This document shows, piece after piece, positions 747 through 63,545 of a stretch of 64,000 bases of DNA. The notes below the pieces were generated by a model that was not told the DNA's origin, made no database searches, and saw only the letters and a program-made list of their open reading frames with translations. The number at the start of each line of letters is the position of its first letter. Positions within the stretch are counted from its first letter, which is position 1. Position numbers and translations under genes: made by a program. This DNA is from Paraprevotella sp. (GTDB lineage: Bacteria > Bacteroidota > Bacteroidia > Bacteroidales > Bacteroidaceae): positions 128,886 to 192,885 of the forward strand of contig JAZRBH010000006.1 in assembly GCA_045634965.1 (NCBI GenBank). The letters are read 5' to 3'.

Positions 747-775
747 ATAAAAGATTCTCTATCGTTGTCAAGAAC

Positions 776-819
776 AAACAAATCAGGCATTTTTCTTAAA
801 AAGAGTGCCTGATTTGTTT
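776..819 (+). terminator. Intrinsic terminator hairpin after the U32 gene
   Basis: aaacaaatcaggca...tgcctgatttgttt inverted repeat followed by T-rich sequence. Confidence 0.75.
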
Positions 820-828
820 ATCTTTTGT

Positions 829-836
829 TATCTTTG
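829..836 (+). promoter_or_regulatory. Bacteroidetes -7 promoter box for cysE
   Basis: TATCTTTG matches TAnnTTTG, 33 bp upstream of the ATG at 870. Confidence 0.65.
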
Positions 837-869
837 CAAGGTATAATATTTACATCTATAGGCGGTTGA

Positions 870-1763: not shown

Positions 1764-1791
1764 AAAGTATCCATAGAACAAACTTACACAA

Positions 1792-8113: not shown

Positions 8114-8116
8114 GAA

Positions 8117-9711: not shown

Positions 9712-9766
9712 AGTTGCTTGTCGTATCAAATCTTGTTAAAAACAATATATATAAAGGAAAAAACCG

Positions 9767-9774
9767 TATTTTTG
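9767..9774 (+). promoter_or_regulatory. -7 promoter box for the DUF2723 operon
   Basis: TATTTTTG, 42 bp upstream of the ATG at 9817. Confidence 0.6.
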
Positions 9775-9816
9775 CAAATTAGTGTCAGAATAATCAGAAA
9801 ATATAAGTTTAATAAG

Positions 9817-12800: not shown

Positions 12801-13131
12801 AGAAGAGGCTATCCCGTCATCTGTAGTACCTCATAATTATCAGAGCGGTTCAATTGACTTAGCTGAGGTGTGGAGTTTCTTGGGTCATCAAGAAGAGGGA
12901 CATACCATTCTTAGAGAGATGGGTGACAATACAAAAGAATATCTTGATTGGTATCTTTCTTTGAGCACTCCAAGGTTATTGCAGTCCCAGAGGGATTATA
13001 TCAGTCGAATTTATATTCTTAATGAAGTTTCAAAAGCACTATCGATTACTGATGAGGAGAAGGCTGCCGAATGTCGTGAGGTGGTGAACCAATACATTGA
13101 GGCCGGTTTTCAGCGAGGCGTGAACTTTTAA
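9817..13131 (+). CDS. DUF2723 / TMEM260-like GT-C membrane glycosyltransferase
   Basis: SFWDCPEF, GHPPGAP, AVEGEVY, QPRERDY, FTNGDNDTFPLWY; start moved from 9718 to 9817, downstream of the -7 box. Confidence 0.88.
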   Translation: MKQYKLVNNLLGWITFAIAAWVYCSTVEPTASFWDCPEFITTGYKLEIGHPPGAPFFMLTANLFSQFVSDPTQIAFMVNIMSALLSAGCILFLFWSITHLARKMICKDYNQMTVAKLVTIMGCGLVGALVYTFSDTFWYSAVEGEVYAYSSLFTALVFWLILKWEEHADEPHSDRWLVLIAYLTGLSIGVHLLNLLCLPAIVLVWYYKKHPNADLKGSLRALVASFVLVAAVLYGIVPGIVKVGGWFELFFVNTMHLPFNSGLIFYIICLITVVLWAIHETIVQKSRKRMNIAYLLAVGMLGIPFYGYGWSSFVIGIILLGALAYVLNRRFQDKPLISARVMNTSLLCMLMIMIGYSTYAVIVIRSTANPPMDQNSPEDIFTLGQYLNREQYGSRPLFYGQAYTSKVKLQPTNEGYCTPVSKKGAPVYQRVEKHSADERDAYEIVHYNIEYVYDQNMLFPRMYSDKDQHPQAYESWLGGVKGREVPYNQCGQTVMVKVPTQAENLRFFFSYQLNFMYWRYFMWNFAGRQNDIQGNGELEHGNWLTGISFIDNARLGNQDNLPSELKNNKGHNVYYCLPLLLGLLGLFWQTYKNQEGVKQFWVVFFLFFMTGIAIVIYLNQTPMQPRERDYAYAGSFYAFAIWVGLGVAAIVDALKRLRIPELPAAIVVSLLALLVPVQMAGENWDDHDRSGRFACRDFGQNYLNSLAEKGYPVIFTNGDNDTFPLWYNQETENCRTDARVCNLSYLQTDWYIDQMKRPAYDSPSLPITWTRLQYVAGTREGIPVQADALKQVLDYYKDSPEDVKELLGENPYELKNVIKYWVLNENPDLQIFPTDSMVITVDKEAVKRSGMMIAGDSIPDVMHISLKGKRAVYKSELMMLEMLSQANWERPLYVAPTVGSSNYGHLGNNFVQEGLANRITPFNTKETGMNIDTDRMYDNMMNKFKFGGINENPDIYLDETVMRMCYTHRRLFAQLAKQLLIEGKEDKALAVVKRIEEAIPSSVVPHNYQSGSIDLAEVWSFLGHQEEGHTILREMGDNTKEYLDWYLSLSTPRLLQSQRDYISRIYILNEVSKALSITDEEKAAECREVVNQYIEAGFQRGVNF

Positions 13132-13143
13132 TTACAAAAATAG

Positions 13144-13755: not shown

Positions 13756-14753
13756 TAGAAGAAATGCAGAATGGTGTAGAAGAAAATATATTATCTTCCG
13801 TATGGATAAAAGCCGAGGCCGAACGTCTCGGCTTTTCTGCCTGTGGGTTCGCAAAGGCTCAACCTGTAGATGAAGGGCATCGTCAGTTTTTTCATGATTG
13901 GGTGCAACGAGGATTGCATGCAGATATGACCTATTTGGAGCGTAATATGGATAAGCGTTCCAATCCCGCATGTTTGGTGGAGGACTGTCGTACCATTATT
14001 TCCGTAGCATTGAATTATTTTCCAAAAACTTTTATTCCGGAGCACCAACCTCAAATTTCGTGGTATGCCTATGGGCGAGATTATCATGAAGTGATGAAAG
14101 AGAAGTTGCAAGCCTTATTGGGAACCATTCAAAAACAGTATTCGGATGCCAATGTTACAGGGCGGTGTTTTTGTGATACAGCTCCTATCTTTGAAAGATA
14201 TTGGGCGTGGCAATGTGGATTAGGATGGATAGGTCGAAACAAGCAACTGATTATTCCGCATGCGGGCAGCACCTATTTCTTAGGAGAAATATTCTTGAAT
14301 CAGCAGGTGGATAAATATGGTATACCTATGAATGACCATTGTGGGAATTGTATGAGATGTATAGAGCATTGCCCTACAGACGCTTTGACGCTTCATAAAG
14401 GATTGGACGCACGAAAGTGTTTAAGTTATCTGACGATTGAAAATCGAGGAGAAATTCCGGTTGAGGCAGCCTCAAAGATGCATCCGTATGTTTATGGCTG
14501 TGACCGTTGTCAACAGGTATGCCCGTATCTGAAATTCGCCGTTCCAACGCATGAAAAAGATTTTTCTCCTACTTCGGAACTTTTGTCTATGGATTGGAGC
14601 TCATGGAAAGAACTGACGCAGGAGTCCTACCAAAGGGTATTTAAAGGTTCCGCAGTTAAGCGGGCGAAATATCCAGGGTTACAACGCAATGTCCATGCGC
14701 TGTCAATAGCGGAAAAGCAAGATGATGATACCTTTAATATGGATGAATCGTAG
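13752..14753 (+). CDS. queG: Epoxyqueuosine reductase
   Basis: YAYGRDYH, CDTAP, CGNCMRCIEHCPT and YGCDRCQQVCP 4Fe-4S motifs. Confidence 0.93.
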   Translation: MIEEMQNGVEENILSSVWIKAEAERLGFSACGFAKAQPVDEGHRQFFHDWVQRGLHADMTYLERNMDKRSNPACLVEDCRTIISVALNYFPKTFIPEHQPQISWYAYGRDYHEVMKEKLQALLGTIQKQYSDANVTGRCFCDTAPIFERYWAWQCGLGWIGRNKQLIIPHAGSTYFLGEIFLNQQVDKYGIPMNDHCGNCMRCIEHCPTDALTLHKGLDARKCLSYLTIENRGEIPVEAASKMHPYVYGCDRCQQVCPYLKFAVPTHEKDFSPTSELLSMDWSSWKELTQESYQRVFKGSAVKRAKYPGLQRNVHALSIAEKQDDDTFNMDES

Positions 14754-14763
14754 TATTCTTCCA

Positions 14764-15876
14764 TTATAACAGTCTGTATGTTCCTCCACTCATCAGTTTT
14801 ACCAATCCTTTCATTTCAAGGTGGAACAAGAAACCGCTGATTTTATGTATGGGAATATTGACGGCAATAGAGAGATTGTTGATGTGTGCCCGTTCCTGCT
14901 GTTGTAAGTACTCAATGATGCGTTGTTCTTCTTCGCAGAGATCCGGAAATAATTCAATCTGAATGTTTTCTTGTTGTTCCTTTTTCTTCACCCACCCGAT
15001 AGCATCCATAAAATCATCTGCATTTTGTATCAAAATGGCCTTGTTGTCACGTATCAACTGATTACAACCTTGTGAATAGGCATCATTGATTCGGCCGGGA
15101 AAAGCAAAAACATCGCGATTATAATCAGAAGCGATGCCGGCAGTGATGAGTGCACCACCTTTGTCAGCTGATTCAATGACAATAGTAGCATCCGCCATAC
15201 CGGCAACAATTCTGTTTCTGCGTACAAAATTCACTTTATCGGCATTTGTTTTGCTCATGAATTCTGTCAGTAGTCCACCTTGTCCTATCATTTCAATGGC
15301 TGTGTTGCGGTGTGTCCTTGGATAGATTTGGTCCAATCCGTGCGCCAATACACCTATAGTATCCAGCCCATTGGATAAGGCAGCTCTATGACTATGGATG
15401 TCAATTCCATATGCCAAACCGCTGACCACCAATACGTCCGGGCATAACAGTTTGAGGTCATGAACAAAGTGACGACATAAATCTTTCCCGTACTCAGTAC
15501 AATGGCGTGTGCCAATCATATTAATGACGCGTGAACGGTTCATATCTGCATTTCCTTTGTAGAAAAGGAGGATAGGTGCATCGTCACATTCTCTGAGTCG
15601 TGCAGGATAATTTTCATCATGATAGCAGATACACGTAATCCCTTTTTGGGTAGCGAACATCCACTCTTCTTCCGCACGTTTTATGTGTTCGTCCATTCCC
15701 TTGAGAACTTCGGCAAGTTTGTCCGATATTTCAGGGTAAAGATCTTTGATATGATGGCGGTTTTCGTATACGGCGCTGGCGCTGCCAATCTCTTTGACGA
15801 GTTGATGCTGTATGACAGGATAGAAATGCAGTGTCCTGCTCAGCGCCATGCTACAGAGTATTTCATTTTCGTGCAT
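14764..15876 (-). CDS. dprA: DNA-processing protein A
   Basis: IGTRHCTEYG, VSGLAYGID, FVRRNRIVAG, SADKGGALITA, C-terminal winged helix. Confidence 0.94.
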   Translation of the reverse strand: MHENEILCSMALSRTLHFYPVIQHQLVKEIGSASAVYENRHHIKDLYPEISDKLAEVLKGMDEHIKRAEEEWMFATQKGITCICYHDENYPARLRECDDAPILLFYKGNADMNRSRVINMIGTRHCTEYGKDLCRHFVHDLKLLCPDVLVVSGLAYGIDIHSHRAALSNGLDTIGVLAHGLDQIYPRTHRNTAIEMIGQGGLLTEFMSKTNADKVNFVRRNRIVAGMADATIVIESADKGGALITAGIASDYNRDVFAFPGRINDAYSQGCNQLIRDNKAILIQNADDFMDAIGWVKKKEQQENIQIELFPDLCEEEQRIIEYLQQQERAHINNLSIAVNIPIHKISGFLFHLEMKGLVKLMSGGTYRLL

Positions 15877-51808: not shown

Positions 51809-52348
51809 TTACCAATTGGCCACCGTCGCATTAAATATCTGGTCTACAATATCCTTCACCATCTGTGTCACCAATTCTTCCTGCACGGCATTCAACTGCA
51901 ATGAAGAATCATACTGCGTGGTTGCACTGAAACGCTGTTCAAAATCCTCATCATGGTTCTGATTGTTCACAAAGCGCACATTCACCGTCATCTTCAACTG
52001 CGTCTGCGCAGAATATCCGTCTGCCGCCACCGACTTGTTGAATTGGTTATACTCCACTATCTCACCGGATATCTGCAAGTCACCATTGCGGTTCACCTGC
52101 TTCAATTTTGTTTGGCGCGCAAAGATATCCGTCAGCTGATTGTTAAAGATGGCCTGCATCGGTCCCCATACATAAGCCGAACGGATAGGAAACTGCGCAA
52201 TCTGTATGGTTTTGGTTTTGGTATAGTCGATAGACGCCCCATTGAACTTATAGGTAATACTGCAAGCCGCCAACACCATGGTAAATGCGACCAGACATAA
52301 GCCATACAAAAAACGGTTCTTATTCATCATATTCTTTATCCAAACCAT
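51809..52348 (-). CDS. lptE: LptE-family lipoprotein
   Basis: Lipobox LAAC + SITYKFNGASIDY, GDLQISGEI; position next to the bEBP and secG. Confidence 0.8.
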   Translation of the reverse strand: MVWIKNMMNKNRFLYGLCLVAFTMVLAACSITYKFNGASIDYTKTKTIQIAQFPIRSAYVWGPMQAIFNNQLTDIFARQTKLKQVNRNGDLQISGEIVEYNQFNKSVAADGYSAQTQLKMTVNVRFVNNQNHDEDFEQRFSATTQYDSSLQLNAVQEELVTQMVKDIVDQIFNATVANW

Positions 52349-53558
52349 ATTCCTTTATTTTGCGGTACAATGTTCGCTCTGAAATTTTCAAATCATGAGC
52401 TGCCGACTTGCGTTTCCCATGATTCTTCTCCAATGCCTTGATGATCATCTGACGCTCCCAATCTTCCAACGACAAAGACTCCTCGACATACTCTTCCGGC
52501 GTTTGGAAATCATCCTCACTTTTGGCAGTTCGTTCTGCAGGATAAGACACATCTTGACGATAATAAGTGATGGGATTGTCTTGCGTAGTCGGGTGTAGCG
52601 AAACACCTTTCACTTCCGCACCTGTTCGTTGCCCCTGCATCTGTTTCTTCAGCTCCATCACGTCGTTTCTCAAATCGAACAAGATCTTATACAAAATCTC
52701 ACGCTCGTTTTCAAAGCTATGTGTTTCTTGCTGTTTCTTCAACGGGACAATATCATGAGACACCAATGTGTCGGGCACATAGTCATCCAACACCTCCGGT
52801 GTGATGACACGCTCCGGCGAAAGGATAGAGATTTGTTCTGTCAGGTTCTTGAGTTGGCGCACATTGCCCGGCCAAGGATATTTCTTCAATCGCATCTGCG
52901 CTGCTTCTGTCAGTTCCACCGGCTCAGGCATATTATATTTTTCAGCTGTATCCATGGCGAACTTTTTGAACAGCAACACCACATCATCCCCCCTCTCACG
53001 CAAAGCCGGCATTTTAATAGGGATGGTGTTCAGTCGGTAGAACAGGTCCTCACGGAAACGACCGTCGCGAATGGCTTTCGCCATATTCACATTCGTTGCC
53101 GCCACGATACGCACATCTGTCTTTCTGACTTCGCTGGAGCCCACACGGATATACTCTCCTGTTTCCAACACACGCAACAAACGTGCTTGTGTCGCCAACG
53201 GCAACTCACCCACTTCATCCAAGAAAAGCGTTCCGCCATTGGCAGCTCCGAAATAACCTTCACGCTCTCCCACCGCACCGGTAAACGCTCCTTTCTCATG
53301 ACCGAACAATTCTGAATCGATTGTGCCCTCCGGAATAGAACCGCAGTTTACGGCAAAGTATTTTTTACTCTTTCGCAAACTATTGTCATGGATGATGCGT
53401 GGTATCGCCTCCTTTCCCACTCCGCTTTCACCGGTAATGAGAACCGACAAATCGGTCTTTGCCACTTGCAAAGCGACATTCACGGCATGATTCACCCCCT
53501 CGGAGTTTCCCACGATACCATATCTTCTTTTTTGTGCTTGAACTTCTGATAAATTCAT
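52320..53558 (-). CDS. Sigma-54-interacting Fis-family regulator (bEBP, no N-terminal sensor)
   Basis: GESGVGKE, ELFGHEKGAFTGA, FLDEVGE, FREDLFYRL, WPGNVRQL, C-terminal HTH. Confidence 0.93.
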   Translation of the reverse strand: MNLSEVQAQKRRYGIVGNSEGVNHAVNVALQVAKTDLSVLITGESGVGKEAIPRIIHDNSLRKSKKYFAVNCGSIPEGTIDSELFGHEKGAFTGAVGEREGYFGAANGGTLFLDEVGELPLATQARLLRVLETGEYIRVGSSEVRKTDVRIVAATNVNMAKAIRDGRFREDLFYRLNTIPIKMPALRERGDDVVLLFKKFAMDTAEKYNMPEPVELTEAAQMRLKKYPWPGNVRQLKNLTEQISILSPERVITPEVLDDYVPDTLVSHDIVPLKKQQETHSFENEREILYKILFDLRNDVMELKKQMQGQRTGAEVKGVSLHPTTQDNPITYYRQDVSYPAERTAKSEDDFQTPEEYVEESLSLEDWERQMIIKALEKNHGKRKSAAHDLKISERTLYRKIKEYGLDKEYDE

Positions 53559-53649: not shown

Positions 53650-53753
53650 CGTAAACATAAAATAATTAAGGAAAATTAAAAAAAATGAAGTTTTACCAAA
53701 CAAGGGCAAAAAGGACAAGGCTTTTTCAATTTTTTTAGTATATTTTTGTAACG
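53650..53753 (+). repeat. Repeat A copy 1 (about 104 bp, carries -7 box TATTTTTG at 53741-53748)
   Basis: cgtaaacataaaataattaagg...gtatatttttgtaacg, near-identical to 55976-56078. Confidence 0.95.
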
Positions 53754-53775
53754 AGCGAACTAAAAACAAAAGAGT

Positions 53776-53961
53776 ATGTATTTAGAAAATTTAAAAGCTA
53801 TTATTGATATGGCATACTGTATTTATCGCATGAAAAATGAAGGCGAAGCATAAAAAAAAGTGATGGAACTTATCAAGGCTTGTTTGCCTACATCTCAAAA
53901 TATTGATTATATTTTTAAAACTCCGTTTTTTGCTGTAACACTCAGTAAGATAGTGCGATGA
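53776..53961 (+). pseudogene. Small ORF split by an in-frame TAA
   Basis: MYLENLKAIIDMAYCIYRMKNEGEA*KKVMELIKACLPTSQ...; TAA at 53851-53853, same frame continues to TGA at 53959-53961. Confidence 0.4.
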
Positions 53962-54057
53962 CGGTTTAATAATTATTATTTCATTAACAAAGAATCATAG
54001 ATGGAATTTTATACGCACTAATTTAATTTCATCAATTGGTTATAAAAAATTACTTAT

Positions 54058-54456
54058 ATGGCTAAGCAATTATGGCATGACATCAGATGGGAAGATAAAC
54101 ATCTGTATTCCAATGTTACTTCTACTAATTATGGTGACCCAGTGCGAGCGTTATATCAAGTTGAACCCGATGGACGACCAAGCCGAAGAGATTTAACAAA
54201 GGCAGGATTGGAACATTTTGGGTATGAAGACGAAGATAAAGAGGAAGCGCTTGAGGCAGAGCGTGAAGCAAAACGCGAACAAGAAAGAGAACGAAAAAGA
54301 GAACGAAAAGAAGCAGAGCGTGAAGCGAAGCGCGAACGAGAGAAGGAAAAAGAAAAGGATGGTTGCTGTCCGTCTTCTAGTCTTTCAAATAGCATATGCA
54401 ATTCTATAATAGATAGCATTCCTGGTTTACGTTGCATAATTGATTGTTGTTGGTAA
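54058..54456 (+). CDS. Hypothetical protein with an E/R/K helical repeat and Cys-rich C-terminus
   Basis: 132-aa ORF, AT-rich leader, followed by a terminator. Confidence 0.7.
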   Translation: MAKQLWHDIRWEDKHLYSNVTSTNYGDPVRALYQVEPDGRPSRRDLTKAGLEHFGYEDEDKEEALEAEREAKREQERERKRERKEAEREAKREREKEKEKDGCCPSSSLSNSICNSIIDSIPGLRCIIDCCW

Positions 54457-54472
54457 AAATAATTTAACAAAT

Positions 54473-54502
54473 AATCGGGATAAAAATTTGTCCCGATTTT
54501 TT
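54473..54502 (+). terminator. Terminator hairpin
   Basis: aatcgggat / gtcccgatt followed by a T-run. Confidence 0.7.
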
Positions 54503-54504
54503 CT

Positions 54505-55374
54505 ATGTTCAAAATAGGACTATTTTTCATAAAATTGATTTCATATACACCATTCTTTGTTTTACGGGGTATATCTTCTTGTTTGGCACTAATTCTTTTG
54601 TTAATGCCATCCACAAAGAAAGTTCCATATCGCAATTTCTTTAGAGTGTACTATAAACATCCGAAGAAGGAGCTTGACAAGATGACATATAGATATTTCC
54701 AATCATTTATAGACTATTTCTTTGAAATGGCTAAAATGACAAGTTTTAGTAAGAAAAAAATGAAACGTCATTGTGTGTTCAAGAATTTGGAAGTTTTAGA
54801 GAAATTGTCGCAAAACCATCAATTTATTCTTTGTTATAGTGGTCATATTGTTAACTTTGAAATGTTAACATCACTTCCTCTACATACTAAAGATATCGGA
54901 ATGTGTCATTTATATCTCTCTGCGCCTCATACTGAAGGGCTCTCTTGGTTGTTAAAGGAAAGAGGGAAGTATGGTGCAATAAATATTCCTTCAAAAAGTC
55001 CTATTAGACCATTACTAAAAATTAAGGAAGAAATGGATATGGGTAAGAGCCCTTACAAATGTTTTGTTTTTGGTTCTCTTTCTGATATGGACCCTAAAAA
55101 AGACGACCTACACTCCGTGCCATTTCTTGAGCACACATTAGAAGTAAAAACAGGTGCTGAAAAAATTGGAAGAAGATTTAAAATGGCGTTTTGTTATGCA
55201 AATATCAGAATGCCCAAAAGAGGTTATTATGAAGTTTCTTTTGAAGAATTAATTCCAAGGAAAAATCCAGATTTATATGAATTTGCATATACAGATGAAT
55301 TTGTAAGTAAATTAGAAGAAAACATAAAACAGCAACCTGAAATATGGATGCAGTGGGGAAGTTGCCGTTTTTAA
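54505..55374 (+). CDS. Divergent lipid A acyltransferase (LpxL/HtrB-like lysophospholipid acyltransferase)
   Basis: N-terminal anchor, YRNF..Y, DYFFEM.K, SGHIVNFE (HxxNxE), RGYYEVSF, LEENIKQQPE.W. Confidence 0.78.
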   Translation: MFKIGLFFIKLISYTPFFVLRGISSCLALILLLMPSTKKVPYRNFFRVYYKHPKKELDKMTYRYFQSFIDYFFEMAKMTSFSKKKMKRHCVFKNLEVLEKLSQNHQFILCYSGHIVNFEMLTSLPLHTKDIGMCHLYLSAPHTEGLSWLLKERGKYGAINIPSKSPIRPLLKIKEEMDMGKSPYKCFVFGSLSDMDPKKDDLHSVPFLEHTLEVKTGAEKIGRRFKMAFCYANIRMPKRGYYEVSFEELIPRKNPDLYEFAYTDEFVSKLEENIKQQPEIWMQWGSCRF

Positions 55375-55457
55375 AGAGGTTTATTAAGTTGTTACAATAA
55401 CGTATATGTATAATCTATTAAAGATATTTTATATATAATGTAATTAAATTCCTGAAT

Positions 55458-55745
55458 ATGTCCTACTACACATTTGAAGCATGCAGAGTATCCGGTGACG
55501 GCAATGCCATATTTCCCGCAGAGATTATCATTGATGATGAAGAGGAAGTCCTGATTTATCGGAAACCGAAACTCATTGGAGCCAAAGAAACAAGGGTGAA
55601 ATTTGGTGCCATTGGTAGTATAACAGTGGACAAACATATCCTTTTTGCAGATATCATCATTGAAACAAAGGGAGGAAGGGAGATTGTGGCACAAGGATTC
55701 ACCCGAGAAGATGCTGATAGAATCAAGCAGATTATCGGAGGATAA
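55458..55745 (+). CDS. Small bacterial PH-domain-like protein
   Basis: Beta-rich, RKPKLIG..ETRVKF..I.SITVD..ILFADIIIET.GG pattern with a C-terminal helix. Confidence 0.6.
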   Translation: MSYYTFEACRVSGDGNAIFPAEIIIDDEEEVLIYRKPKLIGAKETRVKFGAIGSITVDKHILFADIIIETKGGREIVAQGFTREDADRIKQIIGG

Positions 55746-55799
55746 ACAAGAAATATGAGTAGAAAAACATTTGAATAGTTTTCATTTGTCCAAAAACGC

Positions 55800-55968
55800 A
55801 ATAAAAAGTTGCTCCAAAAATGAATTTTTCGCCTTTTGTGACTATATTATATAGGTATTTTAAAAACGAAAAGTATGAAAAAACTGTTTTCTGACATGGA
55901 CGGAGTGCTTGTTGATTTCCATAGCGGTATCGACAAGTTGAGTGACGAAACAAAGCAAGAATACGAGG
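55800..55968 (+). repeat. Repeat B copy 1 (75-bp noncoding leader plus the first 31 codons of NT5C)
   Basis: Matches 59833-60005. Confidence 0.95.
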
Positions 55969-55991
55969 ACAAGGTCGTAAACATAAAATAA
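55875..55991 (+). pseudogene. Truncated NT5C 5'(3')-deoxyribonucleotidase fragment fused to repeat A
   Basis: MKKLFSDMDGVLVDFHSGIDKLSDETKQEYE, then DKVVNIK* read into repeat A. Confidence 0.9.
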
Positions 55992-56078
55992 TTAAGGAAT
56001 TTTAAAAAAATGAAGTTTTACCAAACAAGGGCAAAAAGGACAAGGCTTTTTCATTTTTTTTAGTATATTTTTGTAGCG
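55976..56078 (+). repeat. Repeat A copy 2 (-7 box TATTTTTG at 56066-56073)
   Basis: About 5 differences from copy 1. Confidence 0.95.
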
Positions 56079-56121
56079 TGGGACTTTTCGGATATACAGA
56101 ATAAATAATTTAAAATATAAT

Positions 56122-57174
56122 ATGATTATGAAATTTAGAAGTGTGTTTTACGCAGCTATAGCGGCTTTGCTAATTATTAGTTGCGGTGATAGCAAGCAAG
56201 TCAAAGGCCTAACAGAAGGTGCTTCTGGCGATATGGAAGCCTATGAGAATAGCGATGTGAATGCTATAGAGCAGGCACGTCCGTCAATAATGGTTATTCC
56301 TGGTGATCAGACATTAAAAAACTTTAAGTGTTTAGAGACTCAAAATGTAAATGGTCGCAGTTACACCATACGTGACTATAACAAATATCTGTTGGAGGAC
56401 GACCGTGCGAAACGGATAATTTCCACTATCCAAAATGAATTCAACGAAAAAGGATTCCCTCTTAACGATTTTGAACAGACATTGAAACAACTTGACACTC
56501 AGGAGGCTCTTGATATGGCCGATGGTTTTGGAAAGGATGCAAAGACAATGTTGCTTACAACTGCTCAACCAGATATAATTCTGGATTTGACATATACAAC
56601 CAGTCGTGACAAGGGAATTTCGCTGATTGGTCATAGTTATGGCAATCATAGAGGCGAACAAAACGTTAGTTATACTTTGAGTGCACTGGATGCCTATACT
56701 AACAAAGTGGTGGCAACCATGACTGCAAGTAATATTAAAGGTGTATCAACGACAGAGACTATCCAGAATGACATAAAGGAACAGATGCCTAAGTTCCAAC
56801 AGAATATTACAGACTATTTTAGCGACATCCTAACCCGAGGTCGTGATATTACTATTCGAGTTGTGATGGAAGATGGGTGTGTTTTGTCTCTTTCAGATGA
56901 AAGCATCGAGGGTGACACTTATGCCGATTGGATTATCGATTACATCAAGGCTCACACCGTGAAAGGTGCTTACAAGCTGCAGCGCAATACAGATAAGGAA
57001 CTTTATTTCGTCAATTGCCGAATCAAACTTCTTAACGAAGATGGCACGCAATATGGTGTTTATGATTGGGCTCGTGATTTGCAGAAGAATTTGCGGAAGA
57101 ACCTTGGTCTGAAGTGTAAAAACAGGGCACAAGGTCTTGGCGAAGTCATAATAAGCATCGAAGGTATTAATTAA
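56122..57174 (+). CDS. DUF6175-like lipoprotein
   Basis: Lipobox IISC21; RPSIMVIP, GFPLNDFEQTLK, QPDIILDL, LDAYTNKVVA recognised from DUF6175 proteins. Confidence 0.7.
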   Translation: MIMKFRSVFYAAIAALLIISCGDSKQVKGLTEGASGDMEAYENSDVNAIEQARPSIMVIPGDQTLKNFKCLETQNVNGRSYTIRDYNKYLLEDDRAKRIISTIQNEFNEKGFPLNDFEQTLKQLDTQEALDMADGFGKDAKTMLLTTAQPDIILDLTYTTSRDKGISLIGHSYGNHRGEQNVSYTLSALDAYTNKVVATMTASNIKGVSTTETIQNDIKEQMPKFQQNITDYFSDILTRGRDITIRVVMEDGCVLSLSDESIEGDTYADWIIDYIKAHTVKGAYKLQRNTDKELYFVNCRIKLLNEDGTQYGVYDWARDLQKNLRKNLGLKCKNRAQGLGEVIISIEGIN

Positions 57175-57192
57175 TCATAAAAATAATCGGTT

Positions 57193-58419
57193 ATGAACTG
57201 TATAAATAAGTTTATAAGCATCTCTTTCATGACATTGACAATAATATCATGTGGTGGAGAGCAAAGTAAGGGTACTAAGTTTGCTCCTGAGGAGCGCCAG
57301 TCGTCAATGACAGAAAGCGAACGAGAGAATGCCATCGCTCAAAAGAAATCCGAACTTGAAGGCATCAATATCGACACGTTGCTTTATGGTCATGGAGTAA
57401 AGTTCAGCATCGTGCAACCTTATCTACAAGGCGAGGATATAACTCAGGATATTAGCGATAGGGTTGCCATGAAACTCCTTCAAATCGCAAGCCAGAACGG
57501 CATCAGCGGGTTGGGCACCGAACCGACATTTGTGTTTGGTACGGAAATCATGCAGACAGGCAGAAGTGCAACGGGTACTGCTCCGCAAAAGATGACTGTT
57601 CAATACGAACTCACATTCAAGGTCATGAACACACTGACGGGCGATGTCTATGCCACTGCAACTCAAGAGGTGGCTGGCGTTGGACGCAGTTTTGTAGAAG
57701 CCAATCAAAATTTCGTTAAGGAGATAAAGAATACATCAGAAGTTCAAAAGATGCTTCAAACGGCAAGCAGCCGCATCATAGATTGGTATAACAGCAATAT
57801 TCAAACCATAAAGAACCAGATAGAATCGGCTGCTACAAAAGGTGAATATGAGCTTGCACTGGCACTTGCCTCAAGTGTTCCTCAGCAGGCAGCAGAAGCC
57901 TACAAGTATGCTCAAGGAAGAATTGATGAACTCACCAAAGGGCTGATGCACAAGAGAGCGACTGATATTCTCAACGAGATGACTTCAGCAATTTCTTCTG
58001 CCCATGACGAATTTGAACCGACTATCGGTGCATATTTCAAGATGATTCCTACCGATGCGCCAGAACACGCAAAAGCACAAAAACTCTACGAAAGCTATAT
58101 TAGCAAGTGCAATGCCCGTCGCAAGCAGTTGGAAGACAAGGCTGAACGAGATGAAAATGCCGCTCGTGAACTTGAAAGATTGAACATGAAATATAGTCAC
58201 GAAACTGAACTTGCAGAACTTGAAACCCGAAAAGTGACTGCAAAATACACTTGTGATGAAGCAGCCCGTAAGGCAGAATCTGATGCAAGGGTTGCTATTG
58301 CACAAGCTAAGGCTGATGCCAAAGTTCAAGGCAAACGTAATAGTTTCTTCGGTAGCATCGGTTATGCTATTTCCGGTACTGCAGACCGTGTGTTTAAGGC
58401 GATTGATAAGAATATGTAA
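57193..58419 (+). CDS. Lipoprotein, CsgG/TolB_N-like domain + TPR-like helices + coiled coil
   Basis: Lipobox IISC20; KLLQIASQNG, GVGRS, RIIDWY, GEYELALALASSVP; resembles the usual partner of DUF6175 genes. Confidence 0.6.
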   Translation: MNCINKFISISFMTLTIISCGGEQSKGTKFAPEERQSSMTESERENAIAQKKSELEGINIDTLLYGHGVKFSIVQPYLQGEDITQDISDRVAMKLLQIASQNGISGLGTEPTFVFGTEIMQTGRSATGTAPQKMTVQYELTFKVMNTLTGDVYATATQEVAGVGRSFVEANQNFVKEIKNTSEVQKMLQTASSRIIDWYNSNIQTIKNQIESAATKGEYELALALASSVPQQAAEAYKYAQGRIDELTKGLMHKRATDILNEMTSAISSAHDEFEPTIGAYFKMIPTDAPEHAKAQKLYESYISKCNARRKQLEDKAERDENAARELERLNMKYSHETELAELETRKVTAKYTCDEAARKAESDARVAIAQAKADAKVQGKRNSFFGSIGYAISGTADRVFKAIDKNM

Positions 58420-58442
58420 TATTAACTCTTAAAATGTTTTAT

Positions 58443-59153
58443 ATGAAAAAAATTTTGATTTTAGTATTATTATGCGTTGGTATTTATTGGTGCTTCGAAT
58501 CATGCATAGGATGTGAAAGTGGAGATTCTAGTGTTGGTGATTCAGGTAAACTCGTTGAAAATAAAATAGCCAAAAAGTATTATTCTGATTACCAAGAGGC
58601 TTGCAAAGATGGTGCTTTTGAAGATGCACATAAAAAGTTAGAAAGTGAGCACGAAAAGGTACATTACTCTCTTTCCAGTTCTTATTACCTTAAAGGAGTA
58701 AGGGAGTATTTTAGTGCATTGGAGTATATCTATAAAGCAGAGATACAATATATTGTAACAAACTTGGACGATGAAGCTTGCAAAAACAAAATCACCTTTT
58801 TACTTGCTGAAATACCTATAGATGGTCAAAAGCCTGACGAATCTTTTAAAGCATATAGTAGACCTTTTGAAGAGGAACACGATGAAAGATTTAGAGACTA
58901 CGATTATTATAAACCTATTAAAGTGTATGGATATTATGTAACCTCGTATAATAAATTACTCGACTATACTCTAACATTGGCTATTAATAGAAAGCATAAA
59001 AAACTTGCTAAAAGCATACTCTTTCTGTATATTGACGATCTTAATTTTGTAGAAGGAGCAGATTCATATTATAAAGCAGTATATAGTAAATCAAGCTATA
59101 ACGCAGCGAAGAAAAAATACGATCAAGCTGTAAGTATGCAATTATTTGAATAG
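58443..59153 (+). CDS. Hypothetical exported or membrane-anchored helical protein
   Basis: MKKILILVLLC signal-like N-terminus; AT-rich ORF. Confidence 0.7.
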   Translation: MKKILILVLLCVGIYWCFESCIGCESGDSSVGDSGKLVENKIAKKYYSDYQEACKDGAFEDAHKKLESEHEKVHYSLSSSYYLKGVREYFSALEYIYKAEIQYIVTNLDDEACKNKITFLLAEIPIDGQKPDESFKAYSRPFEEEHDERFRDYDYYKPIKVYGYYVTSYNKLLDYTLTLAINRKHKKLAKSILFLYIDDLNFVEGADSYYKAVYSKSSYNAAKKKYDQAVSMQLFE

Positions 59154-59190
59154 AGCCACTATTGCAGAACATTTCTAAATCCATCTAAAA

Positions 59191-59667
59191 ATGAAAAAAG
59201 TCATAAAAATACTACCAGATAGCACCGCTCAGAATAATACGTTAAGTAATGGTGAGCTACGTTATATCGGAATCAACCAAGCATCAGATGTAGATGGCGA
59301 CGTATTAATGACAAATGCTTGTTACTCTGAAATTTTTGGCATCCATAAAAAATCAGCGAAAAATTCAGATAAGCGGTTGTCTATTGTAAAAATATCTGCA
59401 AACGGGAAATCTATACATCGTTCCTACAGAGGAATCACAGCTAAGGGTTTTGATAAAAATTTTGTTGCATTATCTCCAAATTCCATCATGCTATTACATG
59501 ACAGCGAAGGGAATCAACCGCAAAAGGTGAAAGTGTCAAAGGGTTGTTTTGCTCCTTTCTATTGGTGCCATCCAGATAAGTCTGTTCGCATAAGCGTAAG
59601 GATGGGGCTACTTAGTTTGGTGTTGGGATTAATCTCTCTTATAGTTTCAATAATGAGTCTGTTTTGA
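59191..59667 (+). CDS. Hypothetical protein with a C-terminal TM anchor
   Basis: 158-aa ORF ending GLLSLVLGLISLIVSIMSLF. Confidence 0.7.
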   Translation: MKKVIKILPDSTAQNNTLSNGELRYIGINQASDVDGDVLMTNACYSEIFGIHKKSAKNSDKRLSIVKISANGKSIHRSYRGITAKGFDKNFVALSPNSIMLLHDSEGNQPQKVKVSKGCFAPFYWCHPDKSVRISVRMGLLSLVLGLISLIVSIMSLF

Positions 59668-59708
59668 GAGTCTGCAAATAGGCTAAAGCAACCACTATGC
59701 TGTAATTT

Positions 59709-59789
59709 ATTAAGTCCAAATCGGTCGTTTGAAGGATAAATATCGTGGAACCACGAATATAAGATTTTAATGATTGATTTGGACTTAAT
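59709..59789 (+). other. 81-nt nested hairpin
   Basis: Perfect 14-bp arms attaagtccaaatc / gatttggacttaat around an inner cgtgg-aa-ccacg hairpin. Confidence 0.7.
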
Positions 59790-59832
59790 TTGAAAATACA
59801 CCAAATTGGATGGATAAATGACTATGAACATA

Positions 59833-60005
59833 AATAAAAAAAAGTTGCTCCAAAAAATGAATTTTTCGCCTTTTGTGACTATATTATATAGGTATTTTAA
59901 AAACGGGAAGTATGAAAAAACTGTTTTTTGACATGGATGGTGTGCTGGTCGATTTTCAAAGCGGTATCGACAAGCTGAGTGATGACACAAAGCAAGAGTA
60001 TGAGG
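59833..60005 (+). repeat. Repeat B copy 2
   Basis: Matches 55800-55968. Confidence 0.95.
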
Positions 60006-60376
60006 GCAGACTCGACGAGGTACCTGGTATCTTCTCGCTTATGGAACCTATGCCAGGAGCTATAGAGGCAGTACACGAGTTGAGCAAGCACTACGACGTG
60101 TATATCCTTTCTACCGCCCCGTGGAAGAATCCTTCGGCATGGAGCGACAAAATCAATTGGATAACCAAGCACTTTGGCGACATATTCAAGAAACGTGTTA
60201 TCCTGACACATTGCAAGCATCTCGTCAATGGAGATTACTTGGTTGACGATAGGGCAAAGAACGGTGCGAGCGAGTTCCCCGGCGAATGGATTCAGTTTAG
60301 TTCGAAACGTTACCCCGATTGGGAGGAGGTGACCCGCTACCTCATCAGCGAGGCTGATAATAATCTGCAGAGATGA
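59912..60376 (+). CDS. 5'(3')-deoxyribonucleotidase, NT5C type (HAD)
   Basis: FDMDGVLVDF motif I, ILSTAPW, K..WI..HF, GDYLVDDR. Confidence 0.9.
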   Translation: MKKLFFDMDGVLVDFQSGIDKLSDDTKQEYEGRLDEVPGIFSLMEPMPGAIEAVHELSKHYDVYILSTAPWKNPSAWSDKINWITKHFGDIFKKRVILTHCKHLVNGDYLVDDRAKNGASEFPGEWIQFSSKRYPDWEEVTRYLISEADNNLQR

Positions 60377-60430
60377 GACTTTCGTCACAAATAAAATCTA
60401 CATATTCTGAATAACATTACAAGATAAACA

Positions 60431-60712
60431 ATGAAGGGTACATGCAGTACAGATGTTGAAGATTTTTGTCGCGACAGAGGTTTTCTGTTTCACAAGAACG
60501 GGAGCGGAACATGGGGAGCAGACCGTTATTGGACCTACTACAAGGTGGTGAATAACAACCGTCAATTATACAGTATAGAATATTTCCCCGTTCGTAATCA
60601 TGTAAAGATTAGGTGCGAAAATAATAGTTATAGCGGCACCCTTGAATCGTTAGTTCATTTCGTGGAACTATTGAAAGTCATGCGAATTGATTTGGATAAC
60701 AATATACAATAA
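60431..60712 (+). CDS. Hypothetical protein
   Basis: 93-aa ORF with an A-rich leader, co-oriented with its neighbours. Confidence 0.6.
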   Translation: MKGTCSTDVEDFCRDRGFLFHKNGSGTWGADRYWTYYKVVNNNRQLYSIEYFPVRNHVKIRCENNSYSGTLESLVHFVELLKVMRIDLDNNIQ

Positions 60713-60729
60713 CTCTTAATACAAACAAT

Positions 60730-60990
60730 ATGACATTTAAAGAAGCAAAACTACCTAAGAGTGTTTACCTTATATTTGACAATGACGAAGAAATATATGA
60801 AGGTATTCTGATAGAGATTGTAGATATCAACGAAGCAGAGGATCAATGTGTGCTTCTTGTTGACGACCTGATGCCTCAAACAGCAAAGTTGGAAGTCCCA
60901 TATACGGCTTTGAACGAATCTGTCATGCACATGGCCGGCGTACATCTTTTCGTTGACAAGGAGGCAGCAGAAGAGCATTTGAGCAAGTAA
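60730..60990 (+). CDS. Hypothetical acidic SH3/Tudor-like protein
   Basis: 86 aa, short beta-strands, ends LFVDKEAAEEHL. Confidence 0.55.
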   Translation: MTFKEAKLPKSVYLIFDNDEEIYEGILIEIVDINEAEDQCVLLVDDLMPQTAKLEVPYTALNESVMHMAGVHLFVDKEAAEEHLSK

Positions 60991-61056
60991 TCACAAGGGG
61001 CGCTGTCAGGAACTACGAGTTGACTCACTCCATCAAATTTACTTTACCATATTGAA

Positions 61057-61452
61057 ATGAGTGTCCCATTCATTAAGAATTATACAAGGAATTTCTTTAT
61101 GGACCGTATTAAAAACAAAGAACTGCAAGTTGGCGATACGGTCTATTATCTCGCACCCTCCTCGTCCTACTCCATCAAGAAGTCTGTCATCACCGAGAAA
61201 AGAGAGAATCAGTCCAAAGGACGTTTTCATCTTTTCAAAGGATGTGAGTTGACATTGGCAGATGGTACCACCATTGAGTACGACAAGGTGTTTGACTCTA
61301 AGGAACAGGTATTGGCATATATTGTGGATGATTTACAAACCTCCGTTGCAAGCAAGCGTATTGGTTTACAAACTCTTCAAAAAGAATTGGCTGTATGTGA
61401 ACGACTGCTGAAGATGTACAAGGATGCTTTACAAAAAAACAGTGTGCGCTAA
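61057..61452 (+). CDS. Hypothetical SH3/KOW-like + coiled-coil protein
   Basis: LQVGDTVYYL, VFDSKEQVLAYI; stop overlaps the convergent stop at 61449-61451; the true start may be MDRIK. Confidence 0.6.
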   Translation: MSVPFIKNYTRNFFMDRIKNKELQVGDTVYYLAPSSSYSIKKSVITEKRENQSKGRFHLFKGCELTLADGTTIEYDKVFDSKEQVLAYIVDDLQTSVASKRIGLQTLQKELAVCERLLKMYKDALQKNSVR

Positions 61453-62453
61453 ACTGCTGTCGACCTTGAATTCCCTATCTTGATTAAAATCAAGCCAATG
61501 GCAATCCACACCAACTCGCGGACACGTATCAACAAACTGGCATACACGCCATAAGCTCCGGACAAAGATAACCCACCGACTGCCAAAGCAAAACCGCCTT
61601 CACGAGCCCCCATGCTCATGGGAACAAAAAAGAAAATATTGGAAAACAAGGAGGTGAAGGCTTGCAACAACACGCAATCCCAATACGACACATGGTCTGT
61701 GAGTATCATCAGGATGAATTGTATCTCAAGACAACCTGCCATTCGCACCGCAAATTCAATGAACAGCGATAAATAGAAGGTTGTTTTACGTTGCGCATGC
61801 AATGCCGCTATCTGCTCATCAACCTTACGAATGGACGCTTCTTTGCTACTGATGAAACCTTTCAGTTTGGACCGCAGACCGGGAAGGTGAGAAAGGATGC
61901 GCAGGGCTTTCATCGCCAAACCATTCTTATATCCTTTCATAAAGAAATATATGCCGAAAGAGCAAAAAGCAACGCACAACGCCATGAAGACCGTCATACC
62001 GACTGACATCGTACTACCATACAATAACAAGTAGAGCAATACCGAAAAAGACCAGAAACAAAAATGGGAAAAGATGTGCATCATGGCAAACAAGATGACA
62101 CTGGAGGTGGCTTTCGCAGCACCTACATAAGGTGTCAGTTCCATGATGCGATAGGGTTCACCACCCAACAGTCCTACCGGTGTCACGTAGTTCAATGCGA
62201 AACCGCTGATGGTATATTTATACACCTTTAGGAATGGTACCTTAGGAGCAGAACCGTCATTGATGATGACGGACCACGACCACGCGTTGCCCCAATACAG
62301 AAATATCCATAGCGCAAGGACTGCCGGAAACCAATAACCTGCACGACGGATATTCTCCCATAACTCGGTATATGACATATCGGATGTGCAAAGCATGATG
62401 ACAATCGCCACCACGCCTACACATAAAAATATATTACGATACAGAGGCTTCAT
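61449..62453 (-). CDS. Lysylphosphatidylglycerol synthase TM-region (flippase-like) protein
   Basis: ALNYVTPVGLLGGEPYR, FFVPMSMGAREGG, LIRVRELVW; multi-TM. Confidence 0.85.
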   Translation of the reverse strand: MKPLYRNIFLCVGVVAIVIMLCTSDMSYTELWENIRRAGYWFPAVLALWIFLYWGNAWSWSVIINDGSAPKVPFLKVYKYTISGFALNYVTPVGLLGGEPYRIMELTPYVGAAKATSSVILFAMMHIFSHFCFWSFSVLLYLLLYGSTMSVGMTVFMALCVAFCSFGIYFFMKGYKNGLAMKALRILSHLPGLRSKLKGFISSKEASIRKVDEQIAALHAQRKTTFYLSLFIEFAVRMAGCLEIQFILMILTDHVSYWDCVLLQAFTSLFSNIFFFVPMSMGAREGGFALAVGGLSLSGAYGVYASLLIRVRELVWIAIGLILIKIGNSRSTAV

Positions 62454-63545
62454 TTATTCTTCCACCGCATTCAGCCTCAACTTATCACTATCATCTCGAC
62501 GATCGTGATAATACTTCTTCAATGGGTTAGCATGAGCCTCATCATAATTTTTACGATTGCGATAGATATCTATTGCAGCATAAATGGCTTGACGCATAGA
62601 TGCTTCATCAGCCAGTCCTTGTCCGGCGATATCATAAGCAGTTCCATGATCGGGCGAAGTACGTACGATAGGTAATCCGGCTGTAAAATTGACACCCTCA
62701 GTCATTGCCAATGTTTTAAATGGGGCTAATCCTTGATCGTGATACATTGCAAGGACACCATCAAAATGCTCATACATTTTATTGCCAAAGAAACCATCGG
62801 CTGCATAAGGTCCAAAACATAAAATGCCCTCGTTTTCCAACTCTTGCATGGCAGGGATAATCACTTCCTTCTCCTCACCACCTAAGAGACCGTCGTCTCC
62901 GGCGTGTGGATTCAATGCCAACACGGCAATTCGAGGTTTGGTGACACTGAAATCTCTTCTTAACGTTTCGTAGAAGATACGAGCCTTTCTCATCACAGCC
63001 TCTTGTGTAATAGCAGAAGCAACGTCGCGTATTGGCAGATGAGTGGTTACAAGTGCCACGCGCATCACATCGTTCATCAATATCATCAGTGCTTCTTGAT
63101 TCTCTCCTACACGCTCCTGAATATATTCTGTATGTCCGGGGAATTTGAATGACTCACATTGGATAGCTGACTTGTTGATGGGTGCAGTCACCAACACGTC
63201 AAAGAGACCGGCTTTATAATCCTCCATGGCTCTCTCCAATGCTTTCAAAGCACATTTTCCACTTTCTTCTGTGGGTTGTCCGAAATCGATCTTCACTTCA
63301 TCCACGATACAATCCACCAGATTCAGACGTCCATCCACAGCCTCTTCAGCCTTCTGTATCGTCACAAAGTTTGTGGTCAGTTCCATAGCCTTGCGATGAT
63401 AGGTGGCCACCTTCGGCGAACCATAAACAATAGGGATGCACAAATCCAACATCGTCGGCTCACTGAAAAGTTTCAAGATGATTTCATATCCTACCCCATT
63501 GATATCTCCTTGCGTAATCGCTACGCATATTTTGCCATTTTTCAT
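62454..63545 (-). CDS. pdxA: 4-hydroxythreonine-4-phosphate dehydrogenase
   Basis: ITQGDINGVGYE, TAPINK, GHTEY, NPHAGD, MYHDQG, RTSPDHGTAYDIAG. Confidence 0.96.
   Translation of the reverse strand: MKNGKICVAITQGDINGVGYEIILKLFSEPTMLDLCIPIVYGSPKVATYHRKAMELTTNFVTIQKAEEAVDGRLNLVDCIVDEVKIDFGQPTEESGKCALKALERAMEDYKAGLFDVLVTAPINKSAIQCESFKFPGHTEYIQERVGENQEALMILMNDVMRVALVTTHLPIRDVASAITQEAVMRKARIFYETLRRDFSVTKPRIAVLALNPHAGDDGLLGGEEKEVIIPAMQELENEGILCFGPYAADGFFGNKMYEHFDGVLAMYHDQGLAPFKTLAMTEGVNFTAGLPIVRTSPDHGTAYDIAGQGLADEASMRQAIYAAIDIYRNRKNYDEAHANPLKKYYHDRRDDSDKLRLNAVEE

Follow-up and report, generated by a model that had tools for sequence, protein, structure and literature searches.

Does a chromosomal island built of two tandem units, each opening with the same repeat, carrying different genes and closing with a second shared repeat and a nucleotidase gene, call for an integron-like machine? 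The question is raised by positions 53650-60376 of a 64,000-nt stretch of Paraprevotella sp. DNA (contig JAZRBH010000006.1 of assembly GCA_045634965.1; hereafter the window), where repeat A heads each unit and repeat B leads into a gene of the NT5C deoxyribonucleotidase family. An earlier interpretation made from the letters alone (the sequence-only reading) had proposed that cargo is captured here between conserved anchors, that each block arrives with its own promoter, and that arrays grow by recombination of circular units, giving integron-like behaviour without IntI. Comparison with other contigs of the same species leads us to a more ordinary answer: the locus is probably a recombination hotspot whose alleles are exchanged between shared anchors, and the two-unit form a one-off fusion of two extant alleles. 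Since population data explain the pattern by generic recombination, no integron-like machine is needed.

Alternative gene sets at one chromosomal address

The two repeats and the genes of the island are real, as the sequence-only reading had it. The 44-nt core of A recurs exactly at 53685-53728 and 56010-56053 and the 42-nt core of B at 55827-55868 and 59864-59905, with no third copy of either in the 64-kb window and a chance expectation of 0, and every gene that had been listed was recovered by open reading frame (ORF) and Pfam checks. When the copies of A are aligned with each other (approximately 53650-53762 versus 55976-56087) they are about 93% identical with one 1-nt indel; alignment with conspecific contigs carries the second copy left to 55969. 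The copies of B (55800-55973 versus 59836-60012) are nearly identical in their non-coding portion and differ at about 12 positions within the first 32 NT5C codons, so the two must derive from different alleles. We designate these copies, all on the + strand, A1 (53650-53762, the left edge of the variable region), A2 (55969-56087, which includes 7 nt of native upstream DNA), B1 (55800-55968, a putative NT5C promoter at 55800-55874 followed by NT5C codons 1-32 of a divergent allele) and B2 (59836-59911, a putative NT5C promoter and right-hand recombination anchor).

The island lies between two conserved chromosomal flanks. On its left is a gene for a sigma-54-dependent activator (bEBP; 52320-53558, - strand) and on its right one for an LPG_synthase_TM-family membrane protein (61449-62453, - strand), followed by pdxA (62454-63545, - strand). 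We took as conspecific those contigs that encode an identical bEBP or an identical LPG-synthase-like protein, which gave about 15 distinct contigs (designated here by L numbers) with flanks 97-98.5% identical to those of the window. Between the bEBP gene and NT5C or the LPG synthase gene these contigs hold at least six other structural alleles, or at least seven counting the window's own. A1 is present in every one of them, and homology between alleles stops just past A (at about 53755) and restarts at bPH_3 (55447) or at B (59836). The forecast that A and B-NT5C would be constant among relatives, with cargo and unit number variable, is thus borne out across these contigs, as is the description of the locus as hypervariable; relatives do not carry identical content.

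Two of the alleles correspond to the halves of the window. Allele I (L091 = L147, and L092, with partial copies in L094 and L103) consists of A, cargo1 (small ORFs, a 132-aa protein termed p132 and an LpxL-like gene), a gene for a bacterial PH domain protein (bPH_3), B and the 154-aa form of NT5C, and equals unit 1 of the window alone. Allele IV (L142) occupies the same locus and consists of A, a DUF6175 gene, the lipoprotein gene p408, variant middle genes, p160, B and the 154-aa NT5C, and equals unit 2 alone. The window would accordingly be a head-to-tail join of alleles I and IV, both of which exist singly.

The remaining alleles hold other gene sets. In allele II (L093 = L143, and L146; partial in L095-L097 and L149), A is followed by a gene for an 881-aa FtsK/SpoIIIE protein and by p95, p157, GYF_2, p214, p205 and p67 before bPH_3, B and NT5C; allele IIb (L089, L144) has in addition a 508-aa gene (p508) between bPH_3 and B. 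Allele III (L090) runs from A through 70 nt of cargo1 and a 360-aa zinc-ribbon protein to a terminator, then through a second A and the FtsK cluster to a 223-aa NT5C. Allele V (L145) is allele II with an internal deletion that extends from FtsK codon 128 to p205; the first 128 FtsK/SpoIIIE codons are kept (11087-11491 of that contig, - strand) and are fused to the downstream p205-p67-bPH genes. Which gene cassette occupies the site between the conserved flanking genes therefore depends on the strain, the arrangement known as a replacement islet.

The anchors themselves are mosaic. Across the right anchor, from B through p131 (1.6 kb, 13 copies aligned), there are 80 biallelic informative sites, and 894 of the 3160 site pairs (28%) show all four gametes. 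On the left side, variants in the flank and within A are also reshuffled relative to the type of cargo. Single-nucleotide polymorphisms (SNPs) in the coding part of B1 resemble the NT5C type of L089 and L144, and B2 is of the type found in L092, L093 and L142; B1 is identical to no sampled allele, being 95.6% identical to L089/L144 and 92.4% to L142. Such mosaic SNPs and four-gamete failures indicate that the anchors undergo ordinary homologous recombination.

The fusion junction and its explanation

At the fusion junction (55966-55978, + strand), NT5C, reading ...GAGG, gives way to ACAAGGTCGTAAAC..., the DNA upstream of A. The sequence-only reading had taken the junction for NT5C codons with 13 nt of microhomology. 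The ORF that crosses it (the truncated NT5C, 38 aa, 55875-55991, + strand) translates as E-D-K-V at the junction, without R33 and L34, both of which are invariant among 118 NT5C homologues, and the 9-mer ACAAGACCG lies directly upstream of A, beside the bEBP gene, in every conspecific contig. For these reasons ACAAGGTCG (55969-55977) is native DNA upstream of A and not NT5C codons 32-35, and the true microhomology is therefore at most 3 nt (AGG) rather than 13. BLAST alignments of A2 to other strains all begin at 55969. The join thus ties NT5C codon 32 to the DNA 7 nt upstream of A, GAGG abutting ACAAGGTCG.

Two further non-homologous joints can be read, and all three differ and cut at arbitrary places. 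The second A of L090 comes after a terminator and some 130 nt of unrelated sequence and bears a 20-nt insertion in its 5' part, and the first unit of that allele breaks off 70 nt into cargo1. We considered whether a precise 5' end of A shared by both tandem alleles (TAAACATAA) could be a sign of site-specific recombination and rejected it: in the window, the 9 nt that lie to the left of it are A's native upstream DNA, and the boundaries in the window and L090 therefore differ. The third joint, between A and cargo2 (GGGAC abutting TTTTCGG), lies 22 nt before the stop codon of a p508-like gene with microhomology of GAC or ACTT; L137 and L138 have the intact arrangement, in which a 460-aa p508-like gene is followed by cargo2. 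As the same joint is found in the single-unit allele L142, it is older than the fusion. At the other end of this cargo, homology between the window and L137 passes through a hairpin and ends inside the B promoter, so that the right side of cargo2 looks like a homologous crossover in the shared promoter. Junctions that have no common core, no nucleotide-precise recurrence and no attC-like palindrome at the unit ends do not appear to carry the signature of a site-specific system.

We propose that gene sets in the bEBP-NT5C interval, which are co-oriented and mostly low in guanine plus cytosine (GC), would be swapped through homologous recombination within a pair of shared anchors, the left composed of the activator gene and promoter element A and the right of bPH_3, promoter B, NT5C and p93-p131. 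The parents of the fusion would have been A-cargo1-bPH-B-NT5C and A-cargo2-B-NT5C. An illegitimate join at no more than 3 nt of microhomology would have linked NT5C codon 32 of the first parent to the second parent 7 nt upstream of its A, with the other end of the event resolved through ordinary homology. This could have come about by homology-facilitated illegitimate recombination of incoming DNA, or by tandem duplication between sister chromosomes with subsequent replacement of the cargo in one copy, which would leave the same signature; we infer both the order of events and the route of DNA entry. Either route would account for the stacking, and no dedicated recombinase is needed.

The two-unit structure might instead be an assembly chimera, merging cargo1 and cargo2 strain alleles that coexist in one sample. 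Both single-unit alleles do exist, the same study series yielded contigs of either kind, metagenome-assembled genomes (MAGs) are all that is known of the window's species, and the junction was found in no other assembly. The anatomy of the junction speaks against such an artefact, however, as at most 3 nt are shared and there is hence no common k-mer to mislead a graph assembler, and a graph error within the shared A or B would yield a normal single unit. The SNP pattern of B1 is also its own, and an analogous allele with two copies of A and a different junction was assembled independently (L090). We consider a chimera very improbable. A real junction might still be the work of a site-specific system encoded in trans, integron-like or rAID-like, that captures promoter-bearing cassettes at A and/or B and extends arrays by integrating circular units. 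The unrelated partner sequences, and a difference of 9 nt or more between the window and L090 in the left boundary of the duplicated A, are at odds with this, as are the location of the A-cargo2 joint inside the 3' end of another gene and the lack of an attC-like imperfect palindrome at the unit ends, where the sole hairpin is internal to cargo2. No tyrosine or serine recombinase was found in the 64 kb or within 10 kb in the conspecific contigs, and the plain internal deletion of L145 and the insertion of the 508-aa gene in L089 need no such system. What such a system would explain is the doubling of A in two different alleles, a 5' motif common to A and B (AACATAAA(A)TAA ... AAAAAATGAA(G/T)TTTT, family D4), and the presence of A-like and B-like elements ahead of different genes in islands of other taxa; co-oriented low-GC genes with repeated intergenic motifs also resemble rAID-1, which has been called integron-like (bioRxiv 10.1101/471110). 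On balance we judge this account unlikely.

The whole segment may instead be part of a bigger mobile island that travels in one piece, its internal repeats being leftovers of successive insertions. The same gene family (FtsK/SpoIIIE, p95, bPH_3, p508, NT5C and p93) does occur beside the arg operon in L140, NT5C islets lie also between rpoC and rpsL (L139) and after a dTDP-sugar isomerase/DUF4859 pair (L081, L137, L138), an ancestral adjacency of pdxA and the bEBP gene is interrupted, and the GC content is below that of the genome. Against block movement, no terminal repeats, integrase, relaxase or tRNA target are found at the island ends, and variation within the species is confined to the inside, between fixed outer ends. 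The shared core is also only about 77-78% identical to islands of other taxa, which fits old vertical descent or ancient transfer, and 90-92% identity is reached only by single cargo modules (cargo2, NT5C). Movement of the entire segment therefore strikes us as unlikely too.

Several observations weigh against a one-off fusion of alleles exchanged between anchors. Natural competence, or another route of chromosomal DNA exchange, has not been demonstrated for this organism, in which only dprA was seen. The tandem junction is absent from other assemblies, exact look-ups of the 38-aa junction ORF, NT5C, the DUF6175 protein and p239 having returned nothing, and its reality thus rests on one assembly. 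Other taxa have A-like and B-like elements, NT5C and p93 at chromosomal sites that are not homologous, a recurrence for which exchange mediated by the flanks alone does not account and which leaves room for some element-like mobility. Moreover, a second A was gained by two alleles independently, that of the window and that of L090, which goes beyond one accident. Given anchors that recur across genera and two independent duplications of A, we allow a modest chance that something more organised is at work. Even so, we favour exchange between shared anchors with a single fusion event as the probable history of the locus.

Genes of the island and its relatives at other sites

The 11 genes of the island and the truncated NT5C remnant all lie on the + strand. 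GC content is 28-40% in most 500-nt windows, with up to 46% in the stretch from the DUF6175 gene to p408, compared with 43.6% in the rest of the window. Bacteroides promoters have the -7 consensus TAnnTTTG. Scanning the + strand of the 8-kb island for it gave intergenic perfect matches only at 53741 in A1 (-7 box TATTTTTG, 53741-53748, with the upstream core AACAAGGGCAAAAAGGACAA) and at 56066 in A2 (-7 box at 56066-56073), which agrees with the suggestion that every A-headed unit may have its own promoter. In B, a TTTG lies at -33, and some 20 nt ahead of the NT5C start codon there is an imperfect -7 box, TATTTTAA. On these features A and B probably act as promoters. A sigma-70 promoter scan of the region performed no better than on shuffled sequence, as expected for Bacteroidota, and a sigma-54 promoter in A was considered and rejected, as no GG-N10-GC match was seen by eye.

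Cargo1 opens with two small ORFs read from the sequence (53776-53853, 25 aa, and 53863-53961, 32 aa; + strand), which the sequence-only reading had described as a split ORF and whose counterparts of 29 aa and 32 aa are called in L091 and L092. The 132-aa protein that follows (54058-54456, + strand) is 100% identical in L091 and has a 128-aa length variant in L092. Within its gene, an imperfect 12-nt periodicity at 54241-54355 corresponds to an E/R/K-rich stretch and is followed by a Cys-rich C-terminus (CCPSS...CIIDCCW). Beyond a terminator-like hairpin (54473-54498) lies a gene for a lipid A late acyltransferase-like protein (LpxL/Lip_A_acyltrans; 54505-55374, + strand; Pfam PF03279, E = 3.5e-15, and NCBIfam). 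This gene has a GC content of 31-33% and is rare, with 31 homologues in 5.8 billion clustered proteins, the closest outside the species at 74% identity. The bPH_3 gene (55458-55745, + strand; Pfam PF14470), whose product shows 97-99% identity among conspecific alleles and 94% in a Bacteroidaceae MAG, forms with B and NT5C a right-hand block conserved in most alleles.

Cargo2 (56082-59830, + strand) opens with a 22-nt remnant of the 3' end of the p508-like gene. It comprises genes for a DUF6175 lipoprotein (56122-57174), the 408-aa lipoprotein p408 (57193-58419), the 239-aa protein p239 (58434-59153) and a 158-aa protein (59191-59667), all on the + strand. These are followed by an 81-nt near-perfect hairpin (59709-59789) with 21-nt arms, a fold z of -4.5 and no T-run, which is unique in the window and is conserved with cargo2 in L137 at another chromosomal site. 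Rfam gave no match in 53-62.5 kb, the hairpin included. With a lipid A acyltransferase-like protein, lipoproteins and small proteins, the cargo of both units looks like a set of accessory functions of the cell envelope.

The NT5C gene that closes the island (59912-60376, + strand) is predicted to encode a 5'(3')-deoxyribonucleotidase. Its product matches PF06941 with E = 1.3e-19 and 71.3 bits (cut-off 24.8) and has the HAD motif I, D-M-D-G-V, at residues 7-11, so that on family profile and HAD DxDxV motif it would qualify for the deoxyribonucleotidase family. The sequence-only reading had called this copy full, but at 154 aa it too is shortened: most close homologues have 223 aa, and the window's form lacks a C-terminal helical extension of about 70 aa. 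It ends in DNNLQR (60340-60380), a deletion of about 230-260 nt near 60352-60378 having taken the extension, and L090 retains a 223-aa NT5C at the same locus. To its right, p93 (60431-60712), p86 (60730-60990) and p131 (61057-61452), all on the + strand, form the conserved right flank of the island (60431-61452) and are constant in all conspecific contigs; p93 is also the usual partner of NT5C in other taxa. Far from the island, a DprA (DNA_processg_A) gene (14764-15876, - strand) fits recombination of incoming single-stranded DNA, although such genes are widespread and are no evidence of competence.

The window's UvrA protein groups with MAG proteins labelled Paraprevotella sp. When GTDB representative genomes were scanned with the bEBP protein, one congener came up, an uncultured Paraprevotella, at 80% identity and without the island. 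In Mediterranea, a Bacteroidaceae MAG and a Prevotellaceae MAG (L004, L005 and L006), pdxA directly adjoins the bEBP gene; the LPG-synthase-like gene and the + strand island (53.6-61.45 kb) have therefore split an old pdxA-bEBP-lptE-secG order. Individual modules have a wider distribution. Cargo2 shares 92% DNA identity over 3.8 kb with L137, where it occupies a different chromosomal site in a backbone of about 48% GC as against 43.6% here, and this combination points to recent transfer of the module between taxa. NT5C homologues of 84-96% protein identity, nearly all with a p93 homologue directly after them, lie in variable islands, whether after a dTDP-sugar isomerase/DUF4859 pair (L081, L137, L138), with a kinase-LRR gene on one side and PagL/rpsP on the other (L082-L088), between rpoC and rpsL (L139) or beside the arg operon in a Bacteroidaceae MAG (L140). 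The L139 islet (7195-13136), at an unusual site for accessory genes, holds a kinase-LRR_5 protein, a B-like promoter, NT5C, DUF3467, DUF1508 and a Zeta_toxin-family protein.

Tandem units bounded by NT5C seem to have arisen a second time, in another taxon. L082 (and also L083-L085) carries a full NT5C at 10001-10672 and, 4.16 kb downstream, a decayed and frame-broken NT5C at 14171-14807, with different genes between. L140 resembles allele IIb at both ends, with 78.5% identity over FtsK-p95 and 77% over bPH-p508-B-NT5C-p93, and the middle is unrelated. The upstream core of A, AACAAGGGCAAAA(A/T)GGACAA, with a -7 region, stands ahead of unrelated lipoprotein-like genes in gut-metagenome contigs (L082/L122, L100, L117 and L136), and related islands have B-like copies in front of other small genes (two each in L081 and L137, one each in L139 and L140). 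A metagenome scan with the A core returned 38 matches, about 32 of which are chance matches in coding repeats; L100, L103, L117, L122 and L136 are convincing and L129 is uncertain. B, NT5C and A-like elements thus do occur with other cargo elsewhere, and the window locus appears to belong to a family of mosaic islands, the conserved parts of which may serve as substrates for recombination across species.

The FtsK/SpoIIIE genes of alleles II and III bear on the purpose of the slot, not on the repeats; the window's own allele has neither this ATPase nor the 95-aa protein encoded beside it. L089 encodes the 881-aa ATPase at 7082-9727 and the adjoining 95-aa protein at 6775-7062 (both - strand), and L140 has the pair at 497-3446 (+ strand). 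NCBIfam places EccCa (7e-25) and EssC (6e-23) ahead of FtsK for the 881-aa protein, a PDB search returned 4nh0, 7np7 and 9qks, and the best named matches of the L089 and L140 ATPases are EccCa, EssC, EccC5 and YukB. For the 95-aa protein the top match in three libraries is WXG100/EsxA, in each case below threshold (Pfam, E = 6e-5, 23.6 bits against a cut-off of 27.3; PDB, 2vs0, E = 0.007; NCBIfam, TIGR03930, E = 0.002); it has W-K-D in place of the W-x-G of WXG proteins. L089 also encodes, at 3931-4548 (- strand), a 205-aa protein whose D...E-F-K pattern looks by eye like that of PD-(D/E)xK nucleases and which has no database match; it could be toxin-like cargo.

An FtsK/SpoIIIE ATPase with a WXG100-like protein, followed by strain-variable genes (PD-(D/E)xK-like, zinc-ribbon), recalls the type VIIb regions downstream of essC in Firmicutes. 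The ATPase here, however, has 881 aa and one recognisable P-loop domain, whereas EssC/EccC proteins have about 1,300-1,500 aa and three domains; no other core components of a type VII secretion system (T7SS) were seen here, and the WXG100 matches lie below curated thresholds. A full-text literature search found no paper linking WXG100 or T7SS to Bacteroidota. If the pair is indeed an EssC/EccC-like ATPase with a WXG100-like protein, it would represent a type VII-like secretion module in Gram-negative Bacteroidota, with the variable region as its effector and accessory repertoire, and would interest students of interbacterial competition in the gut. It is a tentative and rather doubtful extension of this idea that A, B, NT5C and p93 are portable anchors, found in Paraprevotella, a Bacteroidaceae MAG and other gut taxa, that they provide different species with tracts of nearly identical DNA by way of which multi-gene modules with promoters of their own are swapped or stacked free of any recombinase, and that the islands constitute the variable effector or accessory region of a new type VII-like secretion locus in Bacteroidota.

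Comparison with known systems

The likeness to class 1-type integrons lies in the tandem, co-oriented units with different cargo between repeated sequences. Integron cassettes, however, are normally promoterless and precisely bounded, whereas the units here have a putative promoter each and irregular boundaries. No integrase or transposase domain was detected in window ORFs of at least 200 aa, in the island proteins or in genes within 10 kb in the conspecific contigs, and no tRNA in the 64-kb window, as the sequence-only reading had observed; IntI is accordingly missing over the same range, and the island has no attI either. An inverted-repeat scan gave one strong hairpin (59709-59789), which we rejected as an attC site as it is internal to cargo2, away from the unit ends, and travels with cargo2 in L137. 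Searches of a plasmid collection gave no match, those of a phage collection only a remote similarity of NT5C to T4-like vibriophages, and IMG/VR one chance match for A and none for B. By its sequence the island does not appear to be an integron. Integron-like behaviour as such, and the growth of arrays by way of circles, found no support in the sequence, in view of three junctions that all differ, the lack of a unit-end attC-like palindrome and of a recombinase, and ordinary mosaicism in the anchors. A pattern of repeat, cargo and repeat does not necessarily signal a new integron-like machine; here population data and generic recombination suffice.

Closer in host and composition is rAID-1 (recombinase-associated acquired interbacterial defence; Ross et al.) of Bacteroidales, which is defined by a tyrosine recombinase that is XerD-like, lies 5' and has no less than 44% identity to BF9343_RS08045 (bioRxiv 10.1101/471110), along with at least two co-oriented downstream genes, a GC content of at most 41% and repeated intergenic motifs (bioRxiv 10.1101/471110; PMC12247911). 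The island shares with it co-oriented, low-GC, mostly small genes, repeated intergenic motifs (A and B each occur twice), a gut Bacteroidales host, variability between strains and horizontal exchange. Its units differ in being multi-gene operons with putative promoters of their own. A domain search, as distinct from a comparison with BF9343_RS08045, found no recombinase domain in the window, and the island proteins gave no immunity-family Pfam match and no PADLOC match of any kind, structure-based remote homology not having been explored. The island thus does not appear to be a member of rAID-1.

For the stacking of units, homology-facilitated illegitimate recombination offers a precedent, with joints of 3-10 bp established in work summarised in PMC6382021 (de Vries & Wackernagel 2002; Prudhomme 2002; Meier & Wackernagel 2003). 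According to that summary one end of such an event is anchored by homology and the other falls at 3-10 bp of microhomology, foreign DNA being inserted on balance; the AGG of the window and the GAC or ACTT of the A-cargo2 joint fit this. The window has a junction of at most 3 nt on one side and flanking anchors 91-98% identical to other alleles. The experiments so summarised were made only in naturally transformable species, whereas here the process is deduced from the anatomy of the junction. With both parental alleles and the fusion product known, the recombination scar is directly readable.

For the locus as a whole, the closest parallel is found in the minimal mobile elements of Neisseria, in which cassette exchange between conserved flanks takes place with no mobility genes involved (Saunders & Snyder 2002, as cited in PMC1797815), and in flexible genomic islets. 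As far as these are described in the source cited, the likeness extends to alternative gene sets at one site, conserved flanks and a lack of mobility genes, and exchange, attributed there to homologous recombination in the flanks, would probably be of that kind here too; the island has neither mobility genes nor terminal repeats of an element. It differs in that its left anchor is a promoter element of about 110 nt capable of being carried along and of duplication, as in the window and L090, in that its right anchor (promoter B, NT5C, p93) is also found at non-homologous sites in other genera, and in its host, a Bacteroidales gut anaerobe in which competence has not been demonstrated. The sequence-only reading had thought this the best candidate for an undescribed system. 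The locus itself is indeed undescribed, but it belongs to a kind already known, that of anchor-mediated replacement or additive islets. Collectively, the data present a sequence-resolved case of a gut Bacteroidales species that maintains many alternative gene sets at a single chromosomal site and now and then stacks them, and for this arrangement a minimal mobile element, or a replacement or additive islet, seems the best conceptual match.

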